Assembly (NCBI GenBank): GCA_003152105.1
Contig: PLZJ01000002.1
Location: forward strand, 405,682-469,681
DNA from: Candidatus Levyibacteriota bacterium
GTDB lineage: Bacteria; Patescibacteriota; Microgenomatia; Levybacterales; UBA12049
Length of the DNA: 64,000 nt
Reading direction: 5' to 3'
Made by a program: the position numbers and the translations under genes. Within the stretch, counting starts at the first letter, position 1. The number at the start of each line of letters is the position of its first letter. Positions 16,635 through 56,507 of the stretch are shown here, piece by piece. A model generated the notes under the pieces. That model had not been told where the DNA came from and searched no databases. It saw only the letters and a program-made list of their open reading frames with translations.

Positions 16635-17882
16635 ATGAAAATAGTAGTAATGATACCAACATATAACGAGAAGGAAAACATAGAGAAGATGTTACCTCTT
16701 TTGGAGAATGAGGTATTCCCAAAAATTCAAAATCATAATATGCATATTTTAGTTGCTGACGATACTTCACCAGACGGGACCAAAGAGGAAGTAGAAAAAT
16801 CAATTAAAAAATGGAGCAATATCCATTTGTTAGAAGGAAAAAAGGAAGGCTTGGGATCAGCATATATCCGTGCTATGCATTACGCTATGAACACATTAAA
16901 TGCTGAAGCTGTAATTGAATTTGACGCAGATTTTCAGCACGATCCGCATGATATTCCAAGATTAGTTGCAGCAATGGATCAAGGGTATGATTATGTTATT
17001 GGAAGTCGGTATATTAAAGGTGGGCAAATTCCTAAGGAATGGGGATTAAACAGAAAAATAAAAAGCTTTTTTGGTAGTCTATTGGCAAGAATAGTTCTTT
17101 TTACATTTTCTATTCATGACATGACTTCTGGTTTCAAATTAACCAAGACTTCATTCTTAAAACAAGTTGATCTAGATCATCTCATTTCAAGAAATTATGC
17201 ATATAAGCTACAAATATTATTTGAAATTGTACTACTTGGTGCAAAGGTAAAGGAAATACCAATCATATTTTATGAGAGAAGTGCAGGGAAAAGTAAAATG
17301 GAGACAAATGACATTTACGATTCTTTAAAAGTAATTTTTACATTACGACTGCGAGAATCAATGCGTATTATCAAATTTTTATTTGTAGGAGGGACAGGGT
17401 TCGTAGTTCAAATTATTGTTCAAGAAAGTACTATTAGAACTGGTTTGGCAATATTTCTAGCAATGCTGGTTTCATCAATTCACTTCCCCTTTTTAAATGT
17501 TCAAAATCTTGGAGCTGTATCAAATGGTATAGGAGCTGGATTTGGAGCAGAAGCAGCAATAGTTTCTAACTTTTTATTCAATAATTTCTGGACCTTTAAT
17601 GATACAAGACATTTAAAACAAACATCACCGTTTGTCATTAGAGCAATAAAATTTAATTTAGCCTCTCTATTATCAATTGCAATACAAACATTTGCAGTAT
17701 ATCTTGGTGTAAGGCTTTTTGGGGAAAATATTAGTCTCTTTTCGCATAGCTTACCTACAAGAATTCTAATATTATTCCCTACAATTATATTTCTTGTGAT
17801 TCCCTTGAATTATATTATTTACAATATGTTAATTTGGAAAACACGCTATTTAAAGCATGATAAAAAAACTTCAACTCACTAA
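16635..17882 (+). CDS. GT2 polyprenol-phosphate glycosyltransferase (DPM1/GtrB-like) fused to C-terminal GtrA-like membrane domain
   Basis: N-terminal IVVMIPTYNEKENI and VADDTSPDGT GT2 motifs; C-terminal about 130 aa with 4 TM helices (FLFVGGTGFVVQ...) matches GtrA family. Confidence 0.75.
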   Translation: MKIVVMIPTYNEKENIEKMLPLLENEVFPKIQNHNMHILVADDTSPDGTKEEVEKSIKKWSNIHLLEGKKEGLGSAYIRAMHYAMNTLNAEAVIEFDADFQHDPHDIPRLVAAMDQGYDYVIGSRYIKGGQIPKEWGLNRKIKSFFGSLLARIVLFTFSIHDMTSGFKLTKTSFLKQVDLDHLISRNYAYKLQILFEIVLLGAKVKEIPIIFYERSAGKSKMETNDIYDSLKVIFTLRLRESMRIIKFLFVGGTGFVVQIIVQESTIRTGLAIFLAMLVSSIHFPFLNVQNLGAVSNGIGAGFGAEAAIVSNFLFNNFWTFNDTRHLKQTSPFVIRAIKFNLASLLSIAIQTFAVYLGVRLFGENISLFSHSLPTRILILFPTIIFLVIPLNYIIYNMLIWKTRYLKHDKKTSTH

Positions 17883-19407
17883 AGAGTCTGTAATTATTAG
17901 TGCAATCTTACTTCTTGCGGCATTTCTCCGTTTGTATAATATTAATGGATTCTTAGTATTTCTTGGAGATGAGGGCAGAGATGTTTTAACAGCATATAAC
18001 ATACTGCATGGACACTTAACATTGCTTGGTCCAACTTCTTCTGTAGGAGGTTTTTTCTTAGGGCCATTTTACTACTACTTAATTGCTCCATTTTTACTTC
18101 TTTTTAATTATGATCCAGTTGGACCAGCAGTAATGATTGCTTTTTTTGGGATTCTCACCGTTTATTTTGTATATAAAATAACTAATGAATTTTTTGGTAA
18201 ACCAGCTGGACTTTTTGCTAGCGCATTGTATGCTGTATCTCCACTAGTTATTCAATATTCTCAATCTTCTTGGAATCCTAACTTAATGCCGATAGCAACA
18301 TTAATTCTTTTGTACTTGCTTTATAAATCAGTAAACAATAGAAAACAAAAATACTTCTTTATAGTTGGATTATTGTATGGAATCTGCATGCAACTTCATT
18401 ACCTTGAAGTGTTTGTTGGAGTTGTCATCCTGCTTTACACCGCATTTGGAATATATAAATTAAATCCAAGTAAGTCGAAAAACATACGTATGATTTTACA
18501 AAGCTATGTAAGTATTTTTGTAGGCTTTATAATTTCATTTTCACCCTTTTTGCTTTTTGAAGTTAGACATAACTTCTTAAATACGAGAAATATTATTATG
18601 TTTATATTTGCTTCCAAAGATGCCGGACCTGGAGGTAATTATGTAACAATTGTGTTTACTGTTTTATTTCGTTTATTTGCGCGTCTTATGGTTGATTTCC
18701 CTCTCGCTCAAGATCTAAAGCTATATAGTATAACCATTCTTATAATTTGGGGTGCGGTAGGAGTATTGATAGGCATTTTTTCAATATTTGCATTATTTAA
18801 AATTAAGAATAAGCAAATGTTTTATTTGTTATTATTTTGGTTATTTATTAGTATTTTACTCTTTGGATTTTATAAGAAGCAAATTTACGATTATTATTTC
18901 GAGTTTCTTTATCCATTACCCTTTATGTTATTTGGCGGTGGACTTGCTCTATTGTATAAAAATGCAAAACAAAATCCAGTTAAGAAATCTATCATACTTA
19001 TAATATTTTTCTTGCTTTTTCTTTTTAGCTTATATCGTGCAGATCCAATATTTAAACAAGCAAATCACCAAAAAGATCAAGCAAAAACTATTGCTGATTT
19101 TGTACTTTCAAAAACTGATAATAAGCCGTTTAATTTTGCATTAATTACTGGAGGAAATTCCGATTATGCATACAGATACTATTTCACTATTGAAAACCAC
19201 CCTCCGGTAACAATATTAAATCCCTCGCAGGATCCTATGCGAAAATCTGTTACCAGTCAGTTGCTTGTGGTTTGTGAAAGTTTGCCTTGTTCTCCACTTG
19301 GATATTCATTATGGGAGGTAGCTGGGTTTGGAAGAGCAAATATTGTTGGATCATGGAATGTTTCAGTAGTTAAGGTATATAAATTGGATCATTACACAGG
19401 TTATTAG
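17857..19407 (+). CDS. GT-C fold glycosyltransferase (GT39/GT83, PMT/ArnT-like)
   Basis: 12+ TM helices, first periplasmic loop with FLGDEGRD (DE motif of PMT/ArnT family); overlaps upstream GT2 gene by 26 nt. Confidence 0.7.
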   Translation: MIKKLQLTKESVIISAILLLAAFLRLYNINGFLVFLGDEGRDVLTAYNILHGHLTLLGPTSSVGGFFLGPFYYYLIAPFLLLFNYDPVGPAVMIAFFGILTVYFVYKITNEFFGKPAGLFASALYAVSPLVIQYSQSSWNPNLMPIATLILLYLLYKSVNNRKQKYFFIVGLLYGICMQLHYLEVFVGVVILLYTAFGIYKLNPSKSKNIRMILQSYVSIFVGFIISFSPFLLFEVRHNFLNTRNIIMFIFASKDAGPGGNYVTIVFTVLFRLFARLMVDFPLAQDLKLYSITILIIWGAVGVLIGIFSIFALFKIKNKQMFYLLLFWLFISILLFGFYKKQIYDYYFEFLYPLPFMLFGGGLALLYKNAKQNPVKKSIILIIFFLLFLFSLYRADPIFKQANHQKDQAKTIADFVLSKTDNKPFNFALITGGNSDYAYRYYFTIENHPPVTILNPSQDPMRKSVTSQLLVVCESLPCSPLGYSLWEVAGFGRANIVGSWNVSVVKVYKLDHYTGY

Positions 19408-36348: not shown

Positions 36349-38043
36349 GTGCAAGAAACAGTCAGTAACTTAGATACTTCGGGTGCAGGATTAACAGATT
36401 TACTAAATAAATGGGGTTCATATTCTGCAACTGATATTTATAATCAAATTAGTAGTATTTCCAATAATATATCGGATAATAATTCAATTCCTGACGTATC
36501 ACAAATATTAAATCTAACAGAAACAAATGCCACAGATTTACAAAGCTTAAAAAATAGTGCACTTGCCTTGCAAGCATTAACACTTGCAAATAAGTCGCTC
36601 CTTGAAAGCGGAACTGCAAAACCAATTATTCAAACATGGTTAGAGCAGGGTAGCATAATTTTTAAAACATTAATTACAAATCCTTCCACGATTACACAAA
36701 CTGTACCGTTTAAATTTTATCTTCCCAAAGAAGCAACTGAAAGCAATATTATCAAAATAGATAATGGGTTAAATGTGGGATACGATCCAACACAAGATGC
36801 GTATTATGTTCAAGGAAGTGTAGTTTTAAATCCAAATCAATCACACATTTATTCTGTTGAAGTGACGGATATTTGGAAAATACCTTCACAGCAAATTGAA
36901 TCATTACGAAATCAAGCGAATCAATTATTTGCTCCGCTTAAATCTACATCATTTTATGCTCAAGGCGCAACACTTTATTCAGATATCATCGCTTCTCTTG
37001 ATACAGCTACAAATCTTCAAGCACAGGCACAAACCCCAGATGAAAGAATTAAAGCTTATCGTGATGCTTTGGTGTATGTAAATAAATCAAAAAGTGAAAT
37101 AACTGATTTAAAAAATCTTGATTCTTCATCAAGTTCAAATTCGAATTTATTAGGATTTGTAGGTGGAGTTCAAGTTACTGCAGTATGGGGCTTAATCATC
37201 GTTCTTACAGCAGGGTTTATATTCCTTGCTGTTTATATGAGGATTTTAATTACGCAAACTCGAAAAAAAGACATTGATGAAAAGAAAAAAGAGTACCAAG
37301 ACATAGGATTATTGACAAAAATCAGTAAAACATTTACAAATCTGAAATCAAGATTTTCAAAGAAAACATTTGTACTGTTTGGAATAATAACCTGTTTTCT
37401 AATTGCATTATTATTGGCGTGTTTAATTTTATATCCACAATTACATTCTAAAAAGATATTAGTAAGCTCAAAAACTACTATTCCGACAAAAAACAAAATA
37501 AATCCAGTCCCTAAAATAACAAGCTTAAAGCCCGTTAATGAGCTTATAGTTCAAAATAAAACTGCTGACTACGTAAATGTAAGGCAAGGGCCTGGTAAAA
37601 ATTTTCCTATTATCAATACTGCAAAAGTAGGATTACGACTTACGCAAGTAGGTAGTAAAACTGATTTATCAGGTGATCAATGGATTGAAATTAATAGTAA
37701 TGGTCATACCGGCTGGATTCTAGGAAGCTATTTGACCAATGTAACTGATACTAGTTCATTAAATAACAACCAAGAAATAAGTATTAAAACTGAAACTCAA
37801 GTACTTGGGGTTTCAGCTAAGAGCAGTAATCAGGTAATGATTAATGTAGAAAATACTACTGGCGTTAATTTACGAGTAGGTCCTTCAACGCACACGGCAA
37901 TAATAACAAAGATTCTTAAAAATACAATTGTTTACAAAATAAACTCAGTAAGTGGTTGGTCTGAGGTTGAGCTAAATTCAACAACCAACGGAAGTCAAAA
38001 TATTAAGGGGTGGATTTATAATAAATACATTACTAGCTTGTAA
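36349..38043 (+). CDS. membrane-spanning protein with two C-terminal bacterial SH3 (SH3b) domains
   Basis: GTG start; central TM helix; two repeats with SH3b signature (VNVRQGPGKNFPII...GWILGSYL and VNLRVGPSTHTAII...GWIYNKYI). Confidence 0.6.
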   Translation: MQETVSNLDTSGAGLTDLLNKWGSYSATDIYNQISSISNNISDNNSIPDVSQILNLTETNATDLQSLKNSALALQALTLANKSLLESGTAKPIIQTWLEQGSIIFKTLITNPSTITQTVPFKFYLPKEATESNIIKIDNGLNVGYDPTQDAYYVQGSVVLNPNQSHIYSVEVTDIWKIPSQQIESLRNQANQLFAPLKSTSFYAQGATLYSDIIASLDTATNLQAQAQTPDERIKAYRDALVYVNKSKSEITDLKNLDSSSSSNSNLLGFVGGVQVTAVWGLIIVLTAGFIFLAVYMRILITQTRKKDIDEKKKEYQDIGLLTKISKTFTNLKSRFSKKTFVLFGIITCFLIALLLACLILYPQLHSKKILVSSKTTIPTKNKINPVPKITSLKPVNELIVQNKTADYVNVRQGPGKNFPIINTAKVGLRLTQVGSKTDLSGDQWIEINSNGHTGWILGSYLTNVTDTSSLNNNQEISIKTETQVLGVSAKSSNQVMINVENTTGVNLRVGPSTHTAIITKILKNTIVYKINSVSGWSEVELNSTTNGSQNIKGWIYNKYITSL

Positions 38044-40293: not shown

Positions 40294-40725
40294 TTATTCT
40301 TTAGCAACAAACCAATTATTACCAATTCCCTCTCCGTTTGTGTCTCCGGATTTTTGGTCGCCGCTGTAGTAGTATAATGGTTTTGCTTTATACGCGTATT
40401 GAAATTGCCCATCGCTGCGTTTAAATATTGTAATATTTCTAAGTAGTTTTGCATGTTGCGTCGCAATATATGCCGGCCAAATTTTTAAACATGTATTTGT
40501 ACATCGACTGACATCCTCACTGTCTTTGGTAAACGTATAGAGACTAAATCCTTTAGTGTCTGTTATAAAACTACCTAAGGTTGAGTTTTTTTGCACGTTT
40601 ATTGCATTGCTTTGGGTTGGATTTGTTGTCCCTGTTTGTTTTTTATTTTGTAACCATGTAATAGAAAAATAACCAACGATTACAACAAGAACGCCAAGCA
40701 GTAACAAGAAATAGATTTTATTCAT
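40294..40725 (-). CDS. secreted protein of the COG4315 / secreted-repeat (Lipoprotein_15) family
   Basis: signal anchor; C-terminal YYYSGDQKSGDTNGEGIGNNWFV motif; paralog of 56520-57083. Confidence 0.6.
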   Translation of the reverse strand: MNKIYFLLLLGVLVVIVGYFSITWLQNKKQTGTTNPTQSNAINVQKNSTLGSFITDTKGFSLYTFTKDSEDVSRCTNTCLKIWPAYIATQHAKLLRNITIFKRSDGQFQYAYKAKPLYYYSGDQKSGDTNGEGIGNNWFVAKE

Positions 40726-40831: not shown

Positions 40832-43800
40832 ATGAATACTATAGCAACAGATAGTAATTTTCTAATGCCAGAATTATTGTCGAATAATCAATCCATTATA
40901 AGCCGACAATTACACATACTCATTAAAAAATGGAGTAATTTTTACTCAGCGCAGTCTACGCTTACAAGAACTGGGCTTGTGGCAATTGCACTAATCGCAG
41001 TTTCATCTCCAATTTTTGCTGCTAATCTTTTAATACACGCAACTGCCGTTAGTTCTCAAAGAATTGAAGCAGAATCCGCAACTCTAACTGGATCTGCACA
41101 ACTTGTTCAAGACAGTAATGCTTCTGGGGGACAAGCACTTGGCTTGAACATGTCGTCTCTTTCTCCAACCCCTTCTTCTTCTCCAACGCTTACCCCAACA
41201 CCTACCAGTACGCCTGTAACAGCAACCCCAACTCCATCTCCTTCTGGAGGACAACCACAACCATTGCCAATTATTTCACGAAATGTTCCTGTCTATGCAT
41301 CTTCTGCACAATATCCTGCTAGTCAAGTAAATGATAATAGTTTTGATACTGAATGGAGATCTAGCGGTCCAGCATGGATTGCATTTGATCTTTCATCTGT
41401 ACCAACTCAAAAGCGAGGAAAGGTTGATATTGTATGGTATGGGAATTGTTGTTCATATGATAATTCAATATCGGGAACAGGCGCATATAATCTTCCTGGT
41501 AGTTACACCATAGAAGCAAATGCAGCACCTGGGGGTTTAGGAAGTTCCCCTGCTTCAGGATGGGTGGTAATACAAACTGTTTCCAATAATACATATCATT
41601 CACGACAATTACTTACTGATTTAACAGGATATAACTGGATTCGAATGAATGTGAGCGCCGTAGATGGATCTTCGCAAAATGAAGATGTAGCAATAAATCT
41701 TGATATACATGATGTAAGTACTGCTGGGAATGATAATTGGATTTTTTACGGAGATTCAATAACCGAGGGTTCAATGGGACAATCCACTTTAAATGGAGTT
41801 TTATCGTTTCAGCAACTAATTAATGCACACAGTTCTGCAAATACTCCACTTGAGGAAAATGGGGGAATTGGGTATCAAACTACCTCATCTGCACTTTCTT
41901 ACTTACCAACACAGCTAGCCTTGTTCCCTGGTAAGTATGTTGGTTTGTCATATGGAACAAATGATGCACTGGGGGGAGTAGATCCGACAACGTTTTATAA
42001 TAATTATGTTTCACTTGTTAACCTAGTTTTGAATGCTGGGAAAATTCCTATTGTGCCAACAATTCCTTGGGGATGCACAAGTTCATTAACAACAAATGTA
42101 CCTATTTTAAATCAACAAATCGAAAACTTATACACTAACTTTCCACAAATCATCCATGGCCCGGATCTATACACCTATTTTCAAAATAACCAAAGTATGG
42201 TCAATCAGACAAGTTCAGATTGTATACATCCATCACCTTCAGTAGGGATGGGTGCATACAGACAGCAATGGGCAAATACCATGATAGCAGAAGTATATAG
42301 TGGTTCTGGAGTACCTACGCCCACACTTACATCTACGCCAACACCTACTCCAACCCTTGCTCCGACTACAGCTCCTTCAATTACACAAAGTCCACAACCT
42401 TCCTATACTGGCATATCTATTAGTGGTAATAAAATAGTAAACTCGTCAGGTCAACAGGTAATTTTACGTGGTGTAGATCGTTCAGGTTCAGAATATGCTT
42501 GCGAACAAGGGTGGGGAATATTTGATGGACCTTCAGATGACGCGTCTGTAAAGGCAATGAAAAGTTGGGGTATAAATGGAGTAAATGTTGGAATAAATGA
42601 AGATTGTTGGTTAGGAATAAATGGAGTAAATGCAGCATATGCAGGAGCAAATTACATTAGTGCAATTCAAACTTATGTTCAGACGCTTGAAAATAATAAT
42701 ATTTATCCGGTAATTGCGCTCTTTTGGGAAGCACCAGGATCAACGCTTGCAACAGGTCAAACCTCTATGCCAGATGCTGATCATGCTACCGCATTATGGC
42801 AATCTGTAGCTAACACGTTTAAAAATGATCCGCATGTCATTTTTAGGCTAAAGGAAGAACCATTTCCTAATAATAATTCTGACAGTACTGCTGCATGGCA
42901 ATGTTGGTTAAATGGTGGATCGTCCTGTAGTGAAGGCTATAATGTCGTTGGTATGCAGTCACTAATTACTACAATTAGAAATACTGGTGCAACAAATATA
43001 ATTCAAGTCCCCGGTATTGAATATGCAAATCAAATGGATCAGTTTTTAACATATAAACCAACTGATCCAAATAATAATGAAATGGCTGTTGTTGATGTGT
43101 ACCCAGACTTAAATCCTTGCGGCTCTACTGCTTGTTATGACAGTCAATATGCACCTATCATAGCGCAAATTCCTTTTATGGCTGGAGAGTTTGGAGAAAG
43201 CGTAAATGGGAATATCTGCGGAGTGACAAATTCTAACACATTTATGAATTGGATGGATCAGCATAATTCTGGCTACTTTGCGTGGACATGGGATACATGG
43301 GGCACAACTTGTGGCGATTTGTCTCTTATCACCGATTATTCAGGAACTCCAAAAACGCCAAATGGTACAAACTTTAAATCTCACCTGTCTTCACTAGGTC
43401 TTGCAAGCCTCGATAAGTCTCCTCTTAAAAATAACAACTTTGCGAGTAATTTTGTTCAAAATGCGTTTGCTCAGACAGTTTCTGCCACCTCAATATGGTC
43501 AGATGGCTATTATCCTGGGTGGCAACAGAGTGGATATCCTCCAAGTAGTATTCCATGGGATGCTATAACTGAACTTGATCAGTTTTCAGTAATGACTGGT
43601 AGTGCGGATAATGGATCAATAAACACTACTGCGCACTCACTAACCCCAGCATATATGAATGCAGCAGTTGCGGCTGCACATGCACACAATAAAAAAATTC
43701 TTATTACTATTGGTGGAGCTGATGATAATAATTGGACTTATGCTTGTAATGCAAGTAATAGAGCAACGTTTATCAGTAATCTTGTAGCGCTTGTTCCACA

Positions 43801-45760
43801 GTACGGATACGATGGTATTGATCTTGATATAGAACAATCAGTAAACGCTTCGGATTTATTAGCTTGTGTTTCAGGTATTAGATCTGCGCTAAATACTATT
43901 AATCCTAATTTAATCTTGAATGAAGCAGGAGATCCTGATTGGGAAGGACCAATGATTGCACCTGTTGCTTCTTACTTAAACCATATAAATCTCATGACTT
44001 ACAACGGTTCAGCTTCGACTCTTTCAACTGAAGTAGCAAAGTACACAAGTTTAGGTGTGCCTACAGATAAGCTTGGGGTTGGCATAGGACTTGAGCCACC
44101 TGAAGCAGATGTTTCTAATCCTTCAGATTGTGCAGCAAAAACAAATTATGCAATAAACAATGCATTAGGTGGCGTTATGGAATGGACAATACCTGATGAT
44201 TCTCTTGATAATAATGGTACTACTCCTTGCCTATCGCAAGTAGCAAGTATTCTTACTTCATTACCAACAGGAACTGGCATACCAAGTCCAACACAACCGC
44301 CTACACCTACTGATACGGGAATTCCAAGTCCAACAACAACTCCTTGTTCTGTAACTCCTCCTACTGGTACAGGAATGGCAACTTTAAACAATGTTTCTCT
44401 TGATGCCAGTGGAACATATTCTATTTTTACGAGAATGCAAGTACCAGCGCTTGGTAATTCATATTACTTACAAGTAGATAATGGGTGTGCACAAAAAATA
44501 GCCGATGTAAATAACATAAATACCTATGATTGGATTGCGAGTGGAACAGTTAACAATACCGTCGGTACGCCACATACGGTTGTTTTGTATGGAAATGAGG
44601 CAAATGTTTTGATAGATGAATTAATTTTTTCTCAAAATTGCTTACCAACTGGACTTGGTGATAATTGTATAAATGGAGTAACAGTAACGCCGACGCCAGT
44701 TTTACCAACAATTACTCCAACACCAACTACTGTTCCAACAAGTCAAACTCTTACTATTTATGACAATTCGGTTTCCACTAAATATTACGATGCACCATAT
44801 GGTGCTACAGTTCATAATGCATGTGATACTGCCAAATTTGTTTCATCTCCTTGCTCGTATAGCATTGCCACCTCAGCATGGGGTGCTGCTGATTTCCAAC
44901 CTGCTGGTTATGTTGGGATGAATTCTGCTGGATATAATTTGTTAACATTTGCGATTAATCCAAACGGACAACCATTATCTGATTTTGGAGTTGAAATGAC
45001 ATTTAATTCTGGGAGTACTGGAATTGTGTTGACAAATAACAATGCGCAGTTGCTATCTAATGGTTGGTATAAAGTTAGTATTCCTATGTCTCAACTTAAT
45101 CCTAACAATCTCCTATTTTATTCAATTCAATTTAAGAGTCAGATAAATGGTAATTTAAACACAGTGTATTATGACGATATACAATTAGTTGGAGTAACTC
45201 CTTCATCTACTCCTGTTCCAACCGTTACAGTAACACCAACGCAAATTCCAACAGTAACACCTCTACCAACAAATATTCCAACTGCAACGCCAACAATTAC
45301 TCCTTCTGGAAAAACATTAACTGTTTATACTAATTCAGTTTCCAGTAGTTTTATAAATGCACCTTATGGAGCAATATCCCATAATTCTTGTGACACCTCA
45401 ACTTTTGTTTCATCTCCTTGCTCGTATAGCATTGCTACCTCAGCATGGGGTGCTGCTGATTTCCAACCTGCAGGCTACAAACCATTAAGCACTTCGGGGT
45501 ACGGGGTATTACATTTTGAGATTAATCCAAACGGACAACCATTATCTGATTTTGCAGCAAGTATGACATTTTCATCTGGAAACAAACAGGTGATCTTATC
45601 CTTGAATAATGCAAGTAGCCTCTCAAATGGGTGGTACGCGGTAACTATTCCGCTCTCTCAACTTAATCCCAAAAACCAAGCAATTTCTTCAATTCAATTT
45701 AAGAGTCAGATAAATGGTAATTTAAACACAGTGTATTATGACGATATTAAGCTTCAGTAA
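40832..45760 (+). CDS. giant secreted multidomain carbohydrate-active protein: discoidin(F5/8C)-like + SGNH esterase + GH5 + GH18 + beta-sandwich + 2x CBM-like repeats, joined by Pro/Thr linkers
   Basis: signal anchor; NDNSFDTEWR discoidin motif; GDSITEG and DCIHPS SGNH block I/V; GH5 LKEEP and GEFG; GH18 DGIDLDIEQ, MTYN, GGVMEW; five P/T-rich linkers; C-terminal 189-aa domain duplicated. Confidence 0.75.
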   Translation: MNTIATDSNFLMPELLSNNQSIISRQLHILIKKWSNFYSAQSTLTRTGLVAIALIAVSSPIFAANLLIHATAVSSQRIEAESATLTGSAQLVQDSNASGGQALGLNMSSLSPTPSSSPTLTPTPTSTPVTATPTPSPSGGQPQPLPIISRNVPVYASSAQYPASQVNDNSFDTEWRSSGPAWIAFDLSSVPTQKRGKVDIVWYGNCCSYDNSISGTGAYNLPGSYTIEANAAPGGLGSSPASGWVVIQTVSNNTYHSRQLLTDLTGYNWIRMNVSAVDGSSQNEDVAINLDIHDVSTAGNDNWIFYGDSITEGSMGQSTLNGVLSFQQLINAHSSANTPLEENGGIGYQTTSSALSYLPTQLALFPGKYVGLSYGTNDALGGVDPTTFYNNYVSLVNLVLNAGKIPIVPTIPWGCTSSLTTNVPILNQQIENLYTNFPQIIHGPDLYTYFQNNQSMVNQTSSDCIHPSPSVGMGAYRQQWANTMIAEVYSGSGVPTPTLTSTPTPTPTLAPTTAPSITQSPQPSYTGISISGNKIVNSSGQQVILRGVDRSGSEYACEQGWGIFDGPSDDASVKAMKSWGINGVNVGINEDCWLGINGVNAAYAGANYISAIQTYVQTLENNNIYPVIALFWEAPGSTLATGQTSMPDADHATALWQSVANTFKNDPHVIFRLKEEPFPNNNSDSTAAWQCWLNGGSSCSEGYNVVGMQSLITTIRNTGATNIIQVPGIEYANQMDQFLTYKPTDPNNNEMAVVDVYPDLNPCGSTACYDSQYAPIIAQIPFMAGEFGESVNGNICGVTNSNTFMNWMDQHNSGYFAWTWDTWGTTCGDLSLITDYSGTPKTPNGTNFKSHLSSLGLASLDKSPLKNNNFASNFVQNAFAQTVSATSIWSDGYYPGWQQSGYPPSSIPWDAITELDQFSVMTGSADNGSINTTAHSLTPAYMNAAVAAAHAHNKKILITIGGADDNNWTYACNASNRATFISNLVALVPQYGYDGIDLDIEQSVNASDLLACVSGIRSALNTINPNLILNEAGDPDWEGPMIAPVASYLNHINLMTYNGSASTLSTEVAKYTSLGVPTDKLGVGIGLEPPEADVSNPSDCAAKTNYAINNALGGVMEWTIPDDSLDNNGTTPCLSQVASILTSLPTGTGIPSPTQPPTPTDTGIPSPTTTPCSVTPPTGTGMATLNNVSLDASGTYSIFTRMQVPALGNSYYLQVDNGCAQKIADVNNINTYDWIASGTVNNTVGTPHTVVLYGNEANVLIDELIFSQNCLPTGLGDNCINGVTVTPTPVLPTITPTPTTVPTSQTLTIYDNSVSTKYYDAPYGATVHNACDTAKFVSSPCSYSIATSAWGAADFQPAGYVGMNSAGYNLLTFAINPNGQPLSDFGVEMTFNSGSTGIVLTNNNAQLLSNGWYKVSIPMSQLNPNNLLFYSIQFKSQINGNLNTVYYDDIQLVGVTPSSTPVPTVTVTPTQIPTVTPLPTNIPTATPTITPSGKTLTVYTNSVSSSFINAPYGAISHNSCDTSTFVSSPCSYSIATSAWGAADFQPAGYKPLSTSGYGVLHFEINPNGQPLSDFAASMTFSSGNKQVILSLNNASSLSNGWYAVTIPLSQLNPKNQAISSIQFKSQINGNLNTVYYDDIKLQ
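44740..45757 (+). repeat. intragenic tandem duplication (two ~567-nt copies) encoding the C-terminal CBM-like domains of the giant protein
   Basis: 60 nt identical at 45121-45180 vs 45688-45747; 61/62 identical at about 44840 vs 45406; 34 nt identical at 44954 vs 45521; constant 567-nt offset. Confidence 0.7.
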
Positions 45761-47358: not shown

Positions 47359-47616
47359 ATGACAAATAAATTATTTATAGGTAGTCTTGATTATACAACT
47401 ACTGACGCACAACTAGATGCACATTTTGCTACTCTTGGAAAAGTACTTTCAGCTAAAGTTATTATTGATCGTTATACTGGTCAAGGTAAAGGCTTTGGTT
47501 TTGTAGAAATGGAAACACCAGAACTCGCAAAAGAAGCAATGGATAAACTAAACGGAACACAACTTAACGGGAGATCAATTGTGGTAAAGGAAGCTAAACC
47601 ACAAGAAAGAACGTAA
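47359..47616 (+). CDS. RRM-type RNA-binding protein
   Basis: RNP2 LFIGSL and RNP1 KGFGFVEM; 85 aa; strong SD AAGGAAGGAGG. Confidence 0.75.
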   Translation: MTNKLFIGSLDYTTTDAQLDAHFATLGKVLSAKVIIDRYTGQGKGFGFVEMETPELAKEAMDKLNGTQLNGRSIVVKEAKPQERT

Positions 47617-47619
47617 AGT

Positions 47620-48822
47620 ATGCGTAATTTTAGATATAACAACCAGAATCGAGGAAATCGTGACGTGCCTTCATTTTCAAAAGGTCCACGATTTCATCGT
47701 GGTGGTCGAAAAATAGAAAAGAAACTTGACCCAAACCTTTTTATTAAAAAAGCAGATATAGAATCTGCGGCAGAGAGTGTAGAAATCACAGCTCGATTTT
47801 CTGACTATCAGCTAGAAGATAAAATAAAAAGAAATATTGAACTTCATGGTTATAGTATTCCTACCTCTATTCAGGAGAAATCAATACCGCAAATTCTTCA
47901 AGGGAGAGATATTATAGGAATCGCAAATACTGGTACTGGAAAAACCGCCGCATTTTTAATAACACTCATAAATAAAGCATTTTTAGATCGCAATCAAAGA
48001 ATTCTTATTGTTGTTCCTACACGGGAACTGGCAATTCAAATAAGAGATGAATTTAAGCTATTTGCCAAAGGAACTGAACTTGAATCTGTGGTGCTTGTTG
48101 GTGGAGCAAATATAAAAAGACAAGTAATGCAACTTAATCATAGACCAAATTTTGTAGTCGGAACTCCCGGAAGATTAAAAGATTTAATTGTTCGTCGTAA
48201 CTTAAATTTACAGCTCTACCAAAACATCGTTTTAGATGAGGTAGATAGAATGGTTGATATAGGATTTATTAAAGATATAAAATATCTAATATCCCTTTTA
48301 CCTAAAGTTCGTCAATCCTTATTTTTTTCAGCAACGGTAGATGGGAAAACACAAGAAGTCCTTTCTGGTTTTGTTACAAATCCAGTAACTGTTTCAGTAA
48401 AACAACAATCTACCGCAAAAAATATAGAACAGGACATAATACGAGTAAATGGGGGAAAAGCAAAAGTTGAAGTACTTCATGATTTGTTAATTCAACCAGG
48501 TTTTGAAAAAGTTATCATTTTTGGTAAAACAAAATGGGGCATTCAAAAATTAACTAATGAACTAATTAATAGAGGATTTAATGCTACCGCAATACACGGT
48601 AATAAAAGTCAAAACCAAAGACAAAGAGCACTTCAGCAGTTTAAAAGCAATGAAGTACAAGTATTACTAGCAACAGATGTTGCTTCACGAGGACTTGATA
48701 TTGAAGATGTAACGCATGTCATAAATTATGATGCGCCAACCTCATATGACGATTATGTACATAGAATTGGTCGAACAGGAAGAGCTGGTAAACAAGGAAT
48801 AGCACTAACTTTCGTTGATTAG
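47620..48822 (+). CDS. DEAD-box ATP-dependent RNA helicase
   Basis: Q-motif, Walker A ANTGTGKT, DEVD box (LDEVDRM), SAT, HRIGRTGRAG; 400 aa. Confidence 0.85.
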   Translation: MRNFRYNNQNRGNRDVPSFSKGPRFHRGGRKIEKKLDPNLFIKKADIESAAESVEITARFSDYQLEDKIKRNIELHGYSIPTSIQEKSIPQILQGRDIIGIANTGTGKTAAFLITLINKAFLDRNQRILIVVPTRELAIQIRDEFKLFAKGTELESVVLVGGANIKRQVMQLNHRPNFVVGTPGRLKDLIVRRNLNLQLYQNIVLDEVDRMVDIGFIKDIKYLISLLPKVRQSLFFSATVDGKTQEVLSGFVTNPVTVSVKQQSTAKNIEQDIIRVNGGKAKVEVLHDLLIQPGFEKVIIFGKTKWGIQKLTNELINRGFNATAIHGNKSQNQRQRALQQFKSNEVQVLLATDVASRGLDIEDVTHVINYDAPTSYDDYVHRIGRTGRAGKQGIALTFVD

Positions 48823-50570: not shown

Positions 50571-50599
50571 AAATTATAGTAAATATAGTTATACTATAA

Positions 50600-50727
50600 A
50601 TACATCAAGAGCGGTAGCTAACACTACCCGGCAACCGATTGAAACGGTGCCTATATCCCTTAATAAGGATAGATGTGGTCATACAGCATATGACAAACAT
50701 TACCTCTTGATAGCAAGAGGTTTTTTT
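50600..50727 (+). promoter_or_regulatory. SAM-I-clan riboswitch (aptamer + intrinsic terminator) in metK leader
   Basis: conserved UCAAGAG...GGCAACC...GGUGCC core (50604-50650); P1 ACAUC/GAUGU; terminator CCTCTTG-ATAG-CAAGAGG + T7 (50703-50727) whose 5' arm can alternatively pair with AUCAAGAG (antiterminator). Confidence 0.6.
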
Positions 50728-51840
50728 ATGGGCAATTATCAATTTACTTCGGAATCAGTTTGCGCAGGACATCCAGATAAGATTTGTGATCAAATTAGTG
50801 ATGCAATTGTTGATGAAGTAATAAGAAACGATAAAAATGGCAGAGTAGCAGTTGAAACAATGGTTACAAAAAATAGAGTGATAATAGTTGGCGAAATATC
50901 AACTAGCGCAAAAATACACATAAAACGCATTGCTCGAGAACAAATAAAAAGATTGGGCTATAACGATAACTCGCTACATTTTACAAACAAATCGCCAATC
51001 GAGGTATACATTCAAAAACAATCAAACGAAATAGCGATTGGTGTTGATAATGATGGAGCTGGAGATCAAGGACTTATGTTTGGTTACGCTTGTTTAGATA
51101 CCGATATTTTCATGCCAATTTCTATAACCATAGCGCATAAGCTTGCTTATGAGATTGATAAAGCACGAGAAACAAAAGCACTTCCATATCTTCGTCCAGA
51201 TGGGAAAACACAAGTAACAGTTTCTTATAAAAATGGCGTTCCAGATAAAGTTGTGTCGGTTATCGTAGCCGTCCCGCATAGTGAAGATGCAAAACTTGAT
51301 CAAGTAAAAGACGACATTTATAAAAAAATTATTTTACCAACACTTTTGAAATATAATTTCACCATTGATCAAAATCATGTGGTAATTAATGGTACTGGTG
51401 CTTGGCATATTGGAGGACCTTCTTCTGACTCAGGACTTACAGGAAGAAAAATAGTTGTGGATACATATGGAGGTTATGCGAGAGTTGGAGGAGGATGCTT
51501 TTCAGGTAAAGATCCTACAAAAGTAGATAGGTCTGGAGCATACGCGGCACGGTATATTGCAAAAAATATCGTTGCCGCCAAGTTAGCAGAGAAAGTTGAA
51601 GTAAGTCTTGCCTATTTTATCGGCGCCAAAAAACCAGTTATGAGTGAAATAGAAACATTTGGTTCAGAAAAAAAATCAAAAAAAATAATTTCAGATTTTG
51701 CAAATGGTTTGCTTGACACTTCGGTTAAAGGTATTTTGCAAGGCTTGTCACTTAGGAGACCTTTATATCTAAAAACCGCAGCTTATGGTCATTTTGGGAG
51801 AGAAGAGTTTCCATGGGAGAAAATTAGTAAGCGGATATAA
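50728..51840 (+). CDS. metK: S-adenosylmethionine synthetase
   Basis: GHPDKICDQISDAIVDEV N-terminal MetK motif and later GGGAFSGKDPTKVDRSGAY; ATG at 50728 chosen because the longer ORF (50647) would run through the riboswitch terminator. Confidence 0.85.
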   Translation: MGNYQFTSESVCAGHPDKICDQISDAIVDEVIRNDKNGRVAVETMVTKNRVIIVGEISTSAKIHIKRIAREQIKRLGYNDNSLHFTNKSPIEVYIQKQSNEIAIGVDNDGAGDQGLMFGYACLDTDIFMPISITIAHKLAYEIDKARETKALPYLRPDGKTQVTVSYKNGVPDKVVSVIVAVPHSEDAKLDQVKDDIYKKIILPTLLKYNFTIDQNHVVINGTGAWHIGGPSSDSGLTGRKIVVDTYGGYARVGGGCFSGKDPTKVDRSGAYAARYIAKNIVAAKLAEKVEVSLAYFIGAKKPVMSEIETFGSEKKSKKIISDFANGLLDTSVKGILQGLSLRRPLYLKTAAYGHFGREEFPWEKISKRI

Positions 51841-54821: not shown

Positions 54822-56507
54822 ATGGCTGAAATCGTATCAGTAGAAAGTGTTGAACCAGTTAGCTTTATTAGTGCTCCTCTTACATGGTTTAAGCAAAATA
54901 ACAAGTTTACAAAGTTACTCATAATAACCATTATCCTGCTTATAATAGTTGGACCGACCGTAATATCAGCAGTGTTTTTTGGTAATGCGCAGACCACACA
55001 AACTTCTTTGCAAACAGAATTTGGCATACAAATTTCCTTAAAAGATAGTACTTTGCCAACAGCTAATCAAATAGCACAAATATCTCCTTCTTGGATACGA
55101 TTTGTAATACTTGGAAATTGTACATTTCCTTCAAATTTACCTAGCAGTAGTAAAAAACTTGTCGTTTTTAACAATCAGTCGTGTAACAATAAGGCACCTC
55201 TTGGATCTACCGATCAAGCTATATGGGATGCTTATATTACAAATTACTACTTACCTTCACTATCTCGGTTTCTTGCAGAAAAGCTACCTGTGAACGCAAT
55301 TGAAATATGGAATGAAGAAGATATTTGTCCAAACACCACTTCATATTGTCCCAAAATACCTCCAGCTATTTATGCTTCTCTTGTTTCTCAAGCTGCTTTG
55401 GTTATAAAAGATTATAATGCAAAAAACAATACTGCAATAAAAGTAGTTATGGGTGGACTTGCATCAGGAAACCCAACATATGTTCAAAATGTACTTGCTG
55501 CAGATAAGAATAGCCTAGAAAATGTTGATGCAATCGGTATTCATCCGTATGGAAAAACTCCTGATCCAAATTGGTGGAGTGGAAAAAGTGGAACATTTTC
55601 GCAAACAATCCTTTCCTACCAACATGTAACAAGTATTCCGTTATGGGTTACAGAAATCGGATATGGCACGCTAGACACAAATTGGCAAACGCAATATTTA
55701 CAAAAAACGTTTTCCTATTTTCAAAGTCAACATATTCCAGTTGTAATTTGGTATATTTGGACAGATGCAGATGCAGGCGGAGATGGAAGTTTGGATTGGG
55801 GACTTTTTGATACTAGTGGAAACATTAAGCCAAGCGGTAAGGAGTTTGCTTCATTTACAAATCTTTCTCAAGGTGGGACAAAACTACATGTATATATTTC
55901 ACTGCAATTTATAAATGAAAAAGGTGGTAAAAGCGCTGACGGAACAGTACTAAAAATAAACAACGCACCAGTACATACAAGCCAGGAACTCGATGTATAT
56001 TTATATAAAGTAGGAGGGACATATAATCCTGAAAACGATCCAAAAAGCATCCATGCGAATCCTTCAGAAACTATACCGGGAGCACTTATTTATAATGCTG
56101 AGCAGGGTGTTTATACCTCTGATGATCCAAGAGCAAGTGTAATTCCACCAATACCCGAAAGTATATCGGGAAAGTATTTGATTGCTGTAAAAGTTCCAGG
56201 ATATCTAAAAAAAGATTATGGAACTATCACAATTCCAAGTAACGCTGCGGGTGCACAAAATATTACTTTAGGAAGCATGACCTCTCCCATACAACTTATC
56301 GCAGGTGATGTAGATGGAGATGGGATAATTGGGTTATTTGATTACAATGAGCTTATTGCATGTTTTCCAGGTGCTAAAAATAGTCAGATTTGTGACCCAA
56401 CTCTCGCAGATTTAAATGATAAACCTATTCCTAAAGATAGTTTGCAAGCAGGAAATCTGTGGGCTGAGGAATTATCTTTATTACTCCAAAATATTCACGG
56501 AATGTAA
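54822..56507 (+). CDS. clan GH-A (TIM-barrel) glycoside hydrolase with beta-sandwich and C-terminal dockerin-like calcium-binding motif
   Basis: acid/base IEIWNEED and nucleophile WVTEIGYG spaced about 120 aa apart; C-terminal GDVDGDGIIGLFDYNEL (dockerin/EF-hand-like). Confidence 0.6.
   Translation: MAEIVSVESVEPVSFISAPLTWFKQNNKFTKLLIITIILLIIVGPTVISAVFFGNAQTTQTSLQTEFGIQISLKDSTLPTANQIAQISPSWIRFVILGNCTFPSNLPSSSKKLVVFNNQSCNNKAPLGSTDQAIWDAYITNYYLPSLSRFLAEKLPVNAIEIWNEEDICPNTTSYCPKIPPAIYASLVSQAALVIKDYNAKNNTAIKVVMGGLASGNPTYVQNVLAADKNSLENVDAIGIHPYGKTPDPNWWSGKSGTFSQTILSYQHVTSIPLWVTEIGYGTLDTNWQTQYLQKTFSYFQSQHIPVVIWYIWTDADAGGDGSLDWGLFDTSGNIKPSGKEFASFTNLSQGGTKLHVYISLQFINEKGGKSADGTVLKINNAPVHTSQELDVYLYKVGGTYNPENDPKSIHANPSETIPGALIYNAEQGVYTSDDPRASVIPPIPESISGKYLIAVKVPGYLKKDYGTITIPSNAAGAQNITLGSMTSPIQLIAGDVDGDGIIGLFDYNELIACFPGAKNSQICDPTLADLNDKPIPKDSLQAGNLWAEELSLLLQNIHGM

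Follow-up and report, generated by a model that had tools for sequence, protein, structure and literature searches.

A single-gene esterase-GH5-GH18 multi-enzyme predicted in a Levyibacteriota genome

A single gene in a Candidatus Levyibacteriota bacterium, a member of the Candidate Phyla Radiation (CPR), encodes a 1642-residue protein in which an SGNH esterase, a glycoside hydrolase family 5 (GH5) domain and a glycoside hydrolase family 18 (GH18) domain are strung together with several predicted carbohydrate-binding modules (CBMs). The gene lies within a window of 64,000 nucleotides (nt), the whole stretch of DNA that was analysed (contig PLZJ01000002.1 of assembly GCA_003152105.1, positions 405,682 to 469,681 of the forward strand). 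From N- to C-terminus, the modules are a CBM32-like β-sandwich, the SGNH esterase, GH5, GH18, a CBM6/35-like β-sandwich and two CBM8-like repeats (Table 1). An initial annotation, made from the sequence without database searches, had called this set of modules in this order, and Pfam, profile and fold matches bear it out; the motifs it quoted were all located (NDNSFDTEWR at residues 167-176, GDSITEG at 307-313, DCIHPS at 463-468, LKEEP at 673-677, GEFG at 785-788, DGIDLDIEQ at 994-1002, MTYN at 1055-1058 and GGVMEW at 1113-1118). All of the five kinds of module it described are present, but it overlooked a 33-residue CBM6/35-like fragment that precedes the first β-sandwich.

The open reading frame (ORF) is uninterrupted through 1642 codons and a stop, as had been proposed. 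It is the largest in the window by approximately threefold, the runner-up encoding 564 residues. The initial annotation had judged a protein of this size unusual in a genome that otherwise encodes small proteins, and the host is a small-genome CPR bacterium. An identical full-length protein was found on three assembled contigs, two of which exceed 1 Mb (a 1,139,039-bp ENA scaffold and a 1,149,594-bp NCBI contig), and a 245-residue fragment that is 99% identical to it comes from another contig. The GC content of the gene is raised (0.388 versus 0.342) because of its Gly/Ala/Pro/Thr-rich composition. Recent horizontal transfer, considered on account of this difference, was rejected because GC content at third codon positions (GC3) is close to the window mean; GC3 is uniformly native across the modules, and the codon usage of the gene is native. 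Scans for promoters and terminators gave counts that were not above those in shuffled sequence.

It is exceedingly improbable that separate genes have been joined by an error of assembly or gene calling, or that the gene is a pseudogene in decay. Assemblers could in principle be led astray by repetitive Pro/Thr linkers and by a duplicated module, and the start codon is ambiguous (M1 or M12), but the recovery of one identical full-length product from three contigs speaks against such an error, as does the fact that the copies of the duplicated module are just 75-85% identical, with no long exact repeats anywhere in the gene and a diverged 567-nt tandem as its sole duplication. An assembly artefact was rejected on these grounds. 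In addition, GC3 is native in every module, the catalytic residues are all intact, and the protein shares its backbone order with one relative (P0001) and its full module set, save for the differences given below, with another (P0045).

The N-terminal β-sandwich and the esterase form one conserved unit (residues 143-488), hereafter β32-SGNH, that is common to approximately 35 database proteins at 30-68% identity. Pfam PF13472 (Lipase_GDSL_2) matches residues 305-469 (E=8.6e-14; 52.9 bits versus a curated cut-off of 32.9), and the module has the α/β/α flavodoxin-like SGNH fold with all four SGNH catalytic blocks (the GDS Ser, the block II Gly, the GxND Asn and the DxxH His). In an alignment of relatives of the unit, conservation is complete or at least 90% at S309, G375, N377 and H466 and at least 90% at G345, and the query and most members of the SGNH alignment have D463. 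An alignment-based AlphaFold2 (AF2) model of the two domains reached a predicted local distance difference test score (pLDDT) of 93.7 and a predicted template modelling score (pTM) of 0.92, values that argue for a rigid didomain. The structural neighbours of the whole model are β-sandwich plus SGNH acetyl-esterases of carbohydrate or peptidoglycan (YxiM, PbeAcXE/CspAcXE, Ape1 and carbohydrate esterase family 2, CE2), with acetyl-xylan esterases and CE3 enzymes outscoring Ape1. The didomain has the layout typical of CE2, in which an N-terminal β-sandwich packs on a C-terminal SGNH domain. Membership of CE2 by sequence was rejected, as no match to PF17996 (CE2_N) was obtained at E<=10 and CE3 and acetyl-xylan esterases are closer.

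The β-sandwich of this unit has a CBM32 fold. A Pfam search with residues 139-302 returned no match at E<=10, PF00754 included; judged from the model, the label "discoidin-like" that it had been given is correct at the level of the fold, though without a Pfam match. Elsewhere, the β32-SGNH unit occurs fused to GH26, GH10, dockerin, CBM35 and malectin domains. The unit is an uncharacterised esterase family, described here for the first time.

The GH5 domain is matched by Pfam PF00150 (Cellulase, clan GH-A) over residues 537-821 (E=3.6e-22; 79.6 bits versus a cut-off of 23.5). Across 157 aligned GH5 sequences, E676 is kept in 156 and E786 in all 157, and Y757 is invariant. The initial annotation had assigned the family from LKEEP and GEFG; Pfam upholds the family, but LKEEP is not the canonical NEP motif and is instead the hallmark of a sub-clade whose active site is remodelled. 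Both the Asn of NEP and the His of HxY have established roles in the GH5 active site, and neither is found in the query, which has E675 and D755 in their places. These two substitutions belong to a set of fully co-varying changes (D672→R/H, F/Y674→K/Q/R/D, N675→E/Q and H755→D) shared by the query, with R672, K674, E675 and D755, and 15 other sequences (16/157), and D755 is absent from every aligned sequence outside this 16-member sub-clade. The GH5 clade occurs in soil Chloroflexota, Actinomycetota, Gemmatimonadota, Dormibacterota and Myxococcota, as well as in a few Saccharimonadales. In a scan of species-representative genomes, the best match was 64% identical and came from a Thermomicrobiaceae metagenome-assembled genome. 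The closest solved GH5 structures, by profile against the PDB, are cellulases, GH5 mannanases and a GH5_26-like or β-glucan-active enzyme (E~1e-20 to 1e-15). Going by the alignment, the co-varying active-site variant defines an uncharacterised GH5 sub-clade that is new here.

The third catalytic domain is a compact barrel that matches Pfam PF00704 (Glyco_hydro_18) over residues 893-1085 (E=8.8e-18; 65.5 bits versus a cut-off of 29.6), so that all three catalytic families named in the initial annotation (SGNH, GH5 and GH18) are confirmed by Pfam. The DxxDxDxE signature (D994, D997, D999 and E1001) aligns and is invariant, together with M1055, Y1057 and W1118, in an eight-sequence alignment of its GH18 clade, and the TIGG (IGG) motif is conserved. 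The Asp of the MxYD motif is replaced by Asn (MTYN) at a position that varies within the clade. The top 60 profile matches are chitinases or chitinase-like proteins, headed by 5gzu at 6e-26, while the match to the EndoS TIM barrel (PF23916) is below threshold (E=6.5e-4; 19.9 bits versus a cut-off of 27).

The β-sandwich that follows GH18 recurs in two relatives, P0001 and P0003. Alone, residues 1172-1282 gave no Pfam match, and a low-confidence AF2 model (pLDDT 55.7 overall and ~60-70 in this late module) matched almost only CBM35 and CBM6 structures, with TM scores of 0.5-0.6 and 20-26% identity; the model points to a CBM6/35-like module, with weaker evidence than exists for the other modules. 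The 33-residue fragment near the N-terminus resembles the first strands of the same fold. When residues 73-105 were fused in silico to residues 1177-1268, the chimera matched CBM_6 over profile positions 1-123/125 and also CBM_35 (~1e-3, sub-threshold), whereas the fragment alone, the late module alone and a shuffled control gave no CBM_6 or CBM_35 match. P0001 conserves both the fragment (FEAE…ASGG) and the late module, but P0003 has the late module with no N-terminal fragment, single-sequence AF2 gave residues 73-105 a pLDDT below 50, and a homolog database search with the fused chimera returned no match. One CBM6/35 domain may, on this weak evidence, be split by ~1070 residues of catalytic modules; if the fragment and residues 1172-1282 do reassemble, the catalytic array would close into a loop.

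The C-terminal repeats are direct repeats spaced 567 nt apart, with 69.6% amino acid and 74.7% nucleotide identity. A 12-sequence profile of such repeats matches DdCBM8, from a GH9 endoglucanase of Dictyostelium discoideum (PDB 7t7y), essentially along its whole length (residues 4-151 of 154, E=3.6e-8), and Pfam gives weak matches to CBM30, SGBP_B_XBD and CBM_11. DdCBM8 binds cellulose and glucomannan, with W572, W574, Y600 and Q686 as ligand residues (PMC9079177). At these four positions, both repeats carry Ala, Tyr, Trp and Lys, respectively.

Several features bear on how the protein is localised. Kyte-Doolittle windows above 1.6 are confined to residues ~46-70, preceded by a long N-region, and equivalent N-terminal hydrophobic segments are present in the homologs P0001, P0002 and P0006. 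A possible AxA-like cleavage site (ATA↓V, residues 70-72) directly follows the segment. Pro/Thr/Ser linkers occur at about residues 106-142, 489-524, 1146-1171, 1283-1304 and 1456-1493, and conserved Cys pairs are found in every extracellular module. The hydrophobic segment, linkers and paired Cys together suggest that the multi-enzyme is exported. It had been called secreted, and the hydrophobic segment agrees with this, but the protein may instead be membrane-tethered, which we consider probable, while the ATA↓V site could permit cleavage. The description of all modules as separated by Pro/Thr linkers holds for the five linkers above, but not for the β-sandwich and SGNH domain, which are joined directly, nor for the GH5-GH18 junction (residues 861-884), which is not Pro/Thr-rich.

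Table 1. Features of the multi-enzyme gene, in window coordinates, with residues (aa) of the encoded protein.
Feature	Position	Strand	Basis
Complete ORF	40832..45760	+	GC3 0.221 vs window mean 0.216±0.021; identical protein on three contigs
Only hydrophobic stretch of the chain, near its N-terminus (aa ~46-70); either a signal-anchor or a long signal peptide	40967..41041	+	Kyte-Doolittle
33-aa RIEAES…NASGGQALGLN fragment (aa 73-105), like first CBM6/CBM35 strands	41048..41146	+	in-silico fusion
CBM32/discoidin-like β-sandwich (aa 143-300), fused directly to esterase	41258..41731	+	
SGNH/GDSL esterase (aa 301-488); catalytic S309, G345, N377, D463, H466	41732..42295	+	
GH5 (β/α)8 domain (aa 525-860); E676 acid/base, E786 nucleophile, Y757	42404..43411	+	Pfam PF00150
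GH5 variant positions (aa 672-677 and 755)	42845-42862 and 43094-43096	+	16/157 sequences
Compact GH18 barrel (aa 885-1145), no insertion domain	43484..44266	+	Pfam PF00704
CBM6/CBM35-like β-sandwich (aa 1172-1282), four conserved Cys	44345..44677	+	low-confidence AF2 model
CBM8-related copy 1 (aa 1305-1455)	44744..45196	+	12-sequence profile vs DdCBM8
CBM8-related copy 2 (aa 1494-1642), diverged tandem duplicate of copy 1	45311..45757	+	567-nt period

A database search returned no protein that matches the multi-enzyme over its full length. When the part of the query spanning GH5 and GH18 was used in an exhaustive search, it identified P0045, a 1676-residue protein from a non-CPR metagenome contig of 63% GC (loci L084/L085), which has an RLKEEP-type GH5 (~76-78% identical), a GH18 of the same clade (~58%), CBM8-like repeats and a β32-SGNH unit. 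P0045 differs from the query in its permuted order (GH5-repeat-GH18-repeat-β32-SGNH), in its lack of the CBM6/35-like module and N-terminal fragment, and in its esterase unit, which is ~30% identical. Given P0045, the architecture is rare without being unique. A second relative, P0001 (a 1170-residue "chitinase" from a JGI metagenome, locus L082), is 52-54% identical to the query over residues 23-492 and 880-1303 and shares the hydrophobic N-terminus, fragment, β32-SGNH unit, GH18 and CBM6/35-like module; unlike the query, it is without GH5 and CBM8-like repeats and has a different C-terminal domain. Judged from sequence, the query resembles a backbone of the P0001 type into which GH5 was inserted and to which CBM8-like repeats were appended.

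Partial combinations of the modules recur in other proteins, from unrelated bacteria, as β32-SGNH-GH18 (P0001 and P0004), GH18-β32-SGNH (P0110, L092 and L135), GH5-GH18 (P0056, P0062 and L110), GH18-GH5-GH5 (L098) and β32-SGNH-GH5 (P0002, P0003, P0006-9 and L061). Single modules prevail: of 80 genome loci, 76 carry GH5 by itself, and among the 57 metagenome loci that scored in the module scan, GH18 is unaccompanied in 52. Because fusion recurs irrespective of order, the three activities would be expected to act on the same material, and their functional coupling is plausible.

Further β32-SGNH genes adjoin the relatives. One lies beside the P0001 gene (L082 5380-7596) and also encodes Fn3_assoc and CHB_HEX_C domains, another is near the P0045 gene (L084 250-1896, minus strand), and a Thermomicrobiales locus (L061 1601-9144) carries matches to β32-SGNH, GH5, β32-SGNH and the repeat in tandem on one strand. 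These arrangements suggest local module expansion and shuffling. On the P0001 contig (L082 15635-17224), a resolvase gene and a gene for a CD-NTase C-terminal-domain (CBASS-like) protein lie only a few kb away from that of the enzyme, which hints at a mobile or defence island.

A second candidate polysaccharide hydrolase is encoded 9 kb downstream of the multi-enzyme gene, by a 561-residue ORF (54822-56507, plus strand) that matches Pfam PF11790 (Glyco_hydro_cc) above the curated cut-off (E=3.2e-7). Published secretome tables equate PF11790 with GH128 endo-β-1,3-glucanases, and the product is a putative GH128-like β-1,3-glucanase.

We favour, with moderate confidence, the reading that the multi-enzyme is a surface-tethered or secreted array for scavenging fungal and/or plant cell-wall debris, including chitin and acetylated β-glycans. 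This reading is favoured because of the partners to which the β32-SGNH unit is fused elsewhere, the CBMs of β-glucan/cellulose type, the chitinase-like GH18 and the nearby GH128-like gene. The N-terminal hydrophobic segment would carry across the membrane a chain whose modules are strung together by flexible Pro/Thr linkers, and the binding modules would dock the array on insoluble β-1,4-linked wall material of fungal and/or plant debris. There, the SGNH esterase would remove O-acetyl groups that obstruct the glycanases, the retaining GH5 endo-β-glycanase would cleave a backbone of glucan/mannan type or possibly one containing amino sugars, and the compact GH18 endo-chitinase would cleave chitin. 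With these activities held on one chain beside the cell, proximity synergy could result, and oligosaccharides and N-acetylglucosamine (GlcNAc) would be delivered to an organism of minimal biosynthetic capacity. The initial annotation had envisaged a dedicated three-activity machine for a complex acetylated β-glycan; the recurrent fusions make the coupling plausible, but a single substrate of that kind is not established.

Several observations weigh against this scavenging role or limit how far it can be specified. No module has a close characterised relative, the best identities to PDB entries being about 20% or less. Two canonical GH5 residues are replaced (N→E675 and H→D755), which leaves the substrate, and even the efficiency, of this domain uncertain; by its sequence, the GH18 domain is without the Asp of MxYD; and the repeats, whose ligand is likewise uncertain, retain conservative residues at just two of the four ligand positions of CBM8. 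Plant, fungal and bacterial targets are indistinguishable from sequence.

It is unlikely that the protein is instead a dedicated machine for the chitin and chitosan of fungal walls, with a chitosanase-like variant GH5 that recognises cationic glucosamine through E675/D755, a GH18 that needs GlcNAc at subsite -1, and CBMs that bind chitin or chitosan. In its favour, two neutral residues of the -1 subsite have become carboxylates, fully co-varying with two new basic residues, and the GH5 family includes chitosanases, bifunctional cellulase/chitosanases and GH5_48 enzymes that act on chitin and chitosan. The characterised GH12+GH18 fusion TcChi, discussed below, shows chitosanase activity in its "cellulase" domain, P0110 pairs GH18 with CBM8-like repeats and has no GH5, a GH128-like gene is nearby, and the first β-sandwich resembles CBM32. 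Against this, the new carboxylates might serve to adjust the pKa of the catalytic acid, most sequences of the variant GH5 clade show no link to GH18, the closest solved GH5 structures are cellulases and mannanases, the ligand does not follow from a CBM32 fold, and it is not obvious what an O-acetyl esterase would do on chitin or chitosan. Somewhat less probable still is a bolder proposal, in which the RLKEEP…DVY GH5 would represent a new specificity class whose two -1 carboxylates recognise an amino sugar, so that the whole protein dismantles the chitin/chitosan-glucan wall of fungi; the other oddity, an array inserted into one CBM6/35 domain, may hold as well. If this GH5 does recognise an amino sugar, it would imply a trophic interaction between CPR bacteria and fungi and not the usual bacterium-on-bacterium epibiosis.

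Peptidoglycan-like or host cell-wall material had been among the targets suggested by the initial annotation, and this is less supported than the scavenging of plant or fungal debris, considering the soil relatives, the CBM8-related repeats and the chitinase-type GH18. An epibiotic CPR bacterium might use the array as a weapon against the wall of its host, with the SGNH domain as an Ape-like peptidoglycan O-acetylesterase, GH18 as a lysozyme-like enzyme or endo-N-acetylglucosaminidase, and GH5 acting on a secondary wall polymer. That the organism is a CPR bacterium and that the didomain resembles Ape1 in fold are both compatible with such a role, and some members of GH18 act as lysozymes or otherwise cleave peptidoglycan; nonetheless, we regard it as improbable. 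Acetyl-xylan esterases and CE3 enzymes score above Ape1, the CBMs belong to types that bind β-glucan or cellulose, the matches of the GH18 profile are to chitinases, and the multi-enzyme has no LysM, SH3 or peptidoglycan-binding domain. The host-wall role is further weakened because most relatives of the modules come from free-living soil bacteria of the Chloroflexota, Actinomycetota and similar phyla, where they are fused to plant-polymer enzymes and other domains (GH26, GH10, dockerins, CBM35 and malectin). A harvester of N-glycans, in which a GH18 endo-β-N-acetylglucosaminidase (ENGase) and a β-mannosidase-type GH5 act on the mannose-GlcNAc core, is very improbable. The sub-threshold EndoS match would fit this role, but no ENGase is among the top GH18 profile matches, which are chitinases, the nearest solved GH5 structures are endo-acting cellulases and mannanases, and the CBM set suits polymeric β-glycans; as nothing beyond the EndoS match pointed to an ENGase, this possibility was rejected.

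CPR bacteria (Patescibacteria) are generally viewed as metabolically minimal symbionts, and three activities plus four binding modules in 1642 residues are a large investment for a genome of ~1.1 Mb. Such an outlay would imply that the cell breaks down insoluble polymers itself and does not just take up host metabolites. The shuffling of these modules across phyla amounts to a natural experiment on which activities need physical linkage, the co-varying GH5 sub-clade is easy to test, and, for research on biomass of mixed plant and fungal origin, the protein is a ready-made chimera of esterase, glycanase and chitinase.

The multi-enzyme gene has a chromosomal context, with housekeeping neighbours that encode AspRS, GluRS, HflX, a DEAD-box helicase and MetK. 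The named relatives of this GluRS, at about 58% identity, are labelled Candidatus Levybacteria/Levyibacteriota or Patescibacteria group, which, taken with the GC content of 34% and a scaffold of ~1.14 Mb, indicates a CPR bacterium of the Microgenomates type. The product of the divergent neighbour of the multi-enzyme gene (40294-40725, minus strand) is small and secreted and carries Lipoprotein_15 repeats (PF03640). The 564-residue runner-up (36349-38043, plus strand) has an internal hydrophobic segment, two bacterial SH3_3 domains, which are often cell-wall-binding, and a long N-terminal region with no family match. A 516-residue membrane protein (17857-19407, plus strand) with PMT_2 and STT3-like glycosyltransferase matches is, as a matter of speculation, a candidate glycosylator of secreted proteins, for example of the Pro/Thr linkers of the multi-enzyme. 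At 47359-48822 (plus strand), a gene for an 85-residue RRM_1 RNA-binding protein lies directly 5' of the DEAD-box helicase gene, and the two may be a functional pair. A SAM-I/IV riboswitch aptamer (50597-50710, plus strand; Rfam RF01725, 50.6 bits) is situated directly 5' of the S-adenosylmethionine synthetase gene, called at about 50728-51840 (locus L001); a longer ORF with a GTG start at 50647 would reach into the riboswitch and has probably been called too long.

Multi-catalytic carbohydrate-active enzymes are well known. Clostridium thermocellum CelE, or Cel5C-CE2 (PDB 2wao), a GH5 endoglucanase joined to a CE2 esterase, likewise combines a GH5 with an esterase, but CelE has CE2, whereas the query gives no Pfam CE2_N match and its β-sandwich is CBM32-like; the query also differs from CelE in its module order, its lack of a dockerin, and its additional GH18 and three further CBMs. 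Among CPR bacteria, Microgenomates have been reported to have the widest GH repertoire. Fusions of cellulase and chitinase are rare in one survey, which counts six among 40,946 proteins (Talamantes et al. 2016, PMC4928363). In TcChi of Thermococcus chitonophagus, a GH12+GH18 protein, the combination widens the range of substrates to chitin, chitosan, cellulose and β-1,3-glucan, with chitosanase activity residing in the "cellulase" domain (PMC13629093). TcChi and the surveyed fusions resemble the query in carrying a "cellulase-family" domain, a GH18 and CBMs on one chain; they differ from it in that the text consulted on them mentions no esterase and none is from CPR, and TcChi uses GH12, not GH5. 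What is new here is that a CPR genome combines an esterase, a GH5 and a GH18 in one protein of seven extracellular modules.

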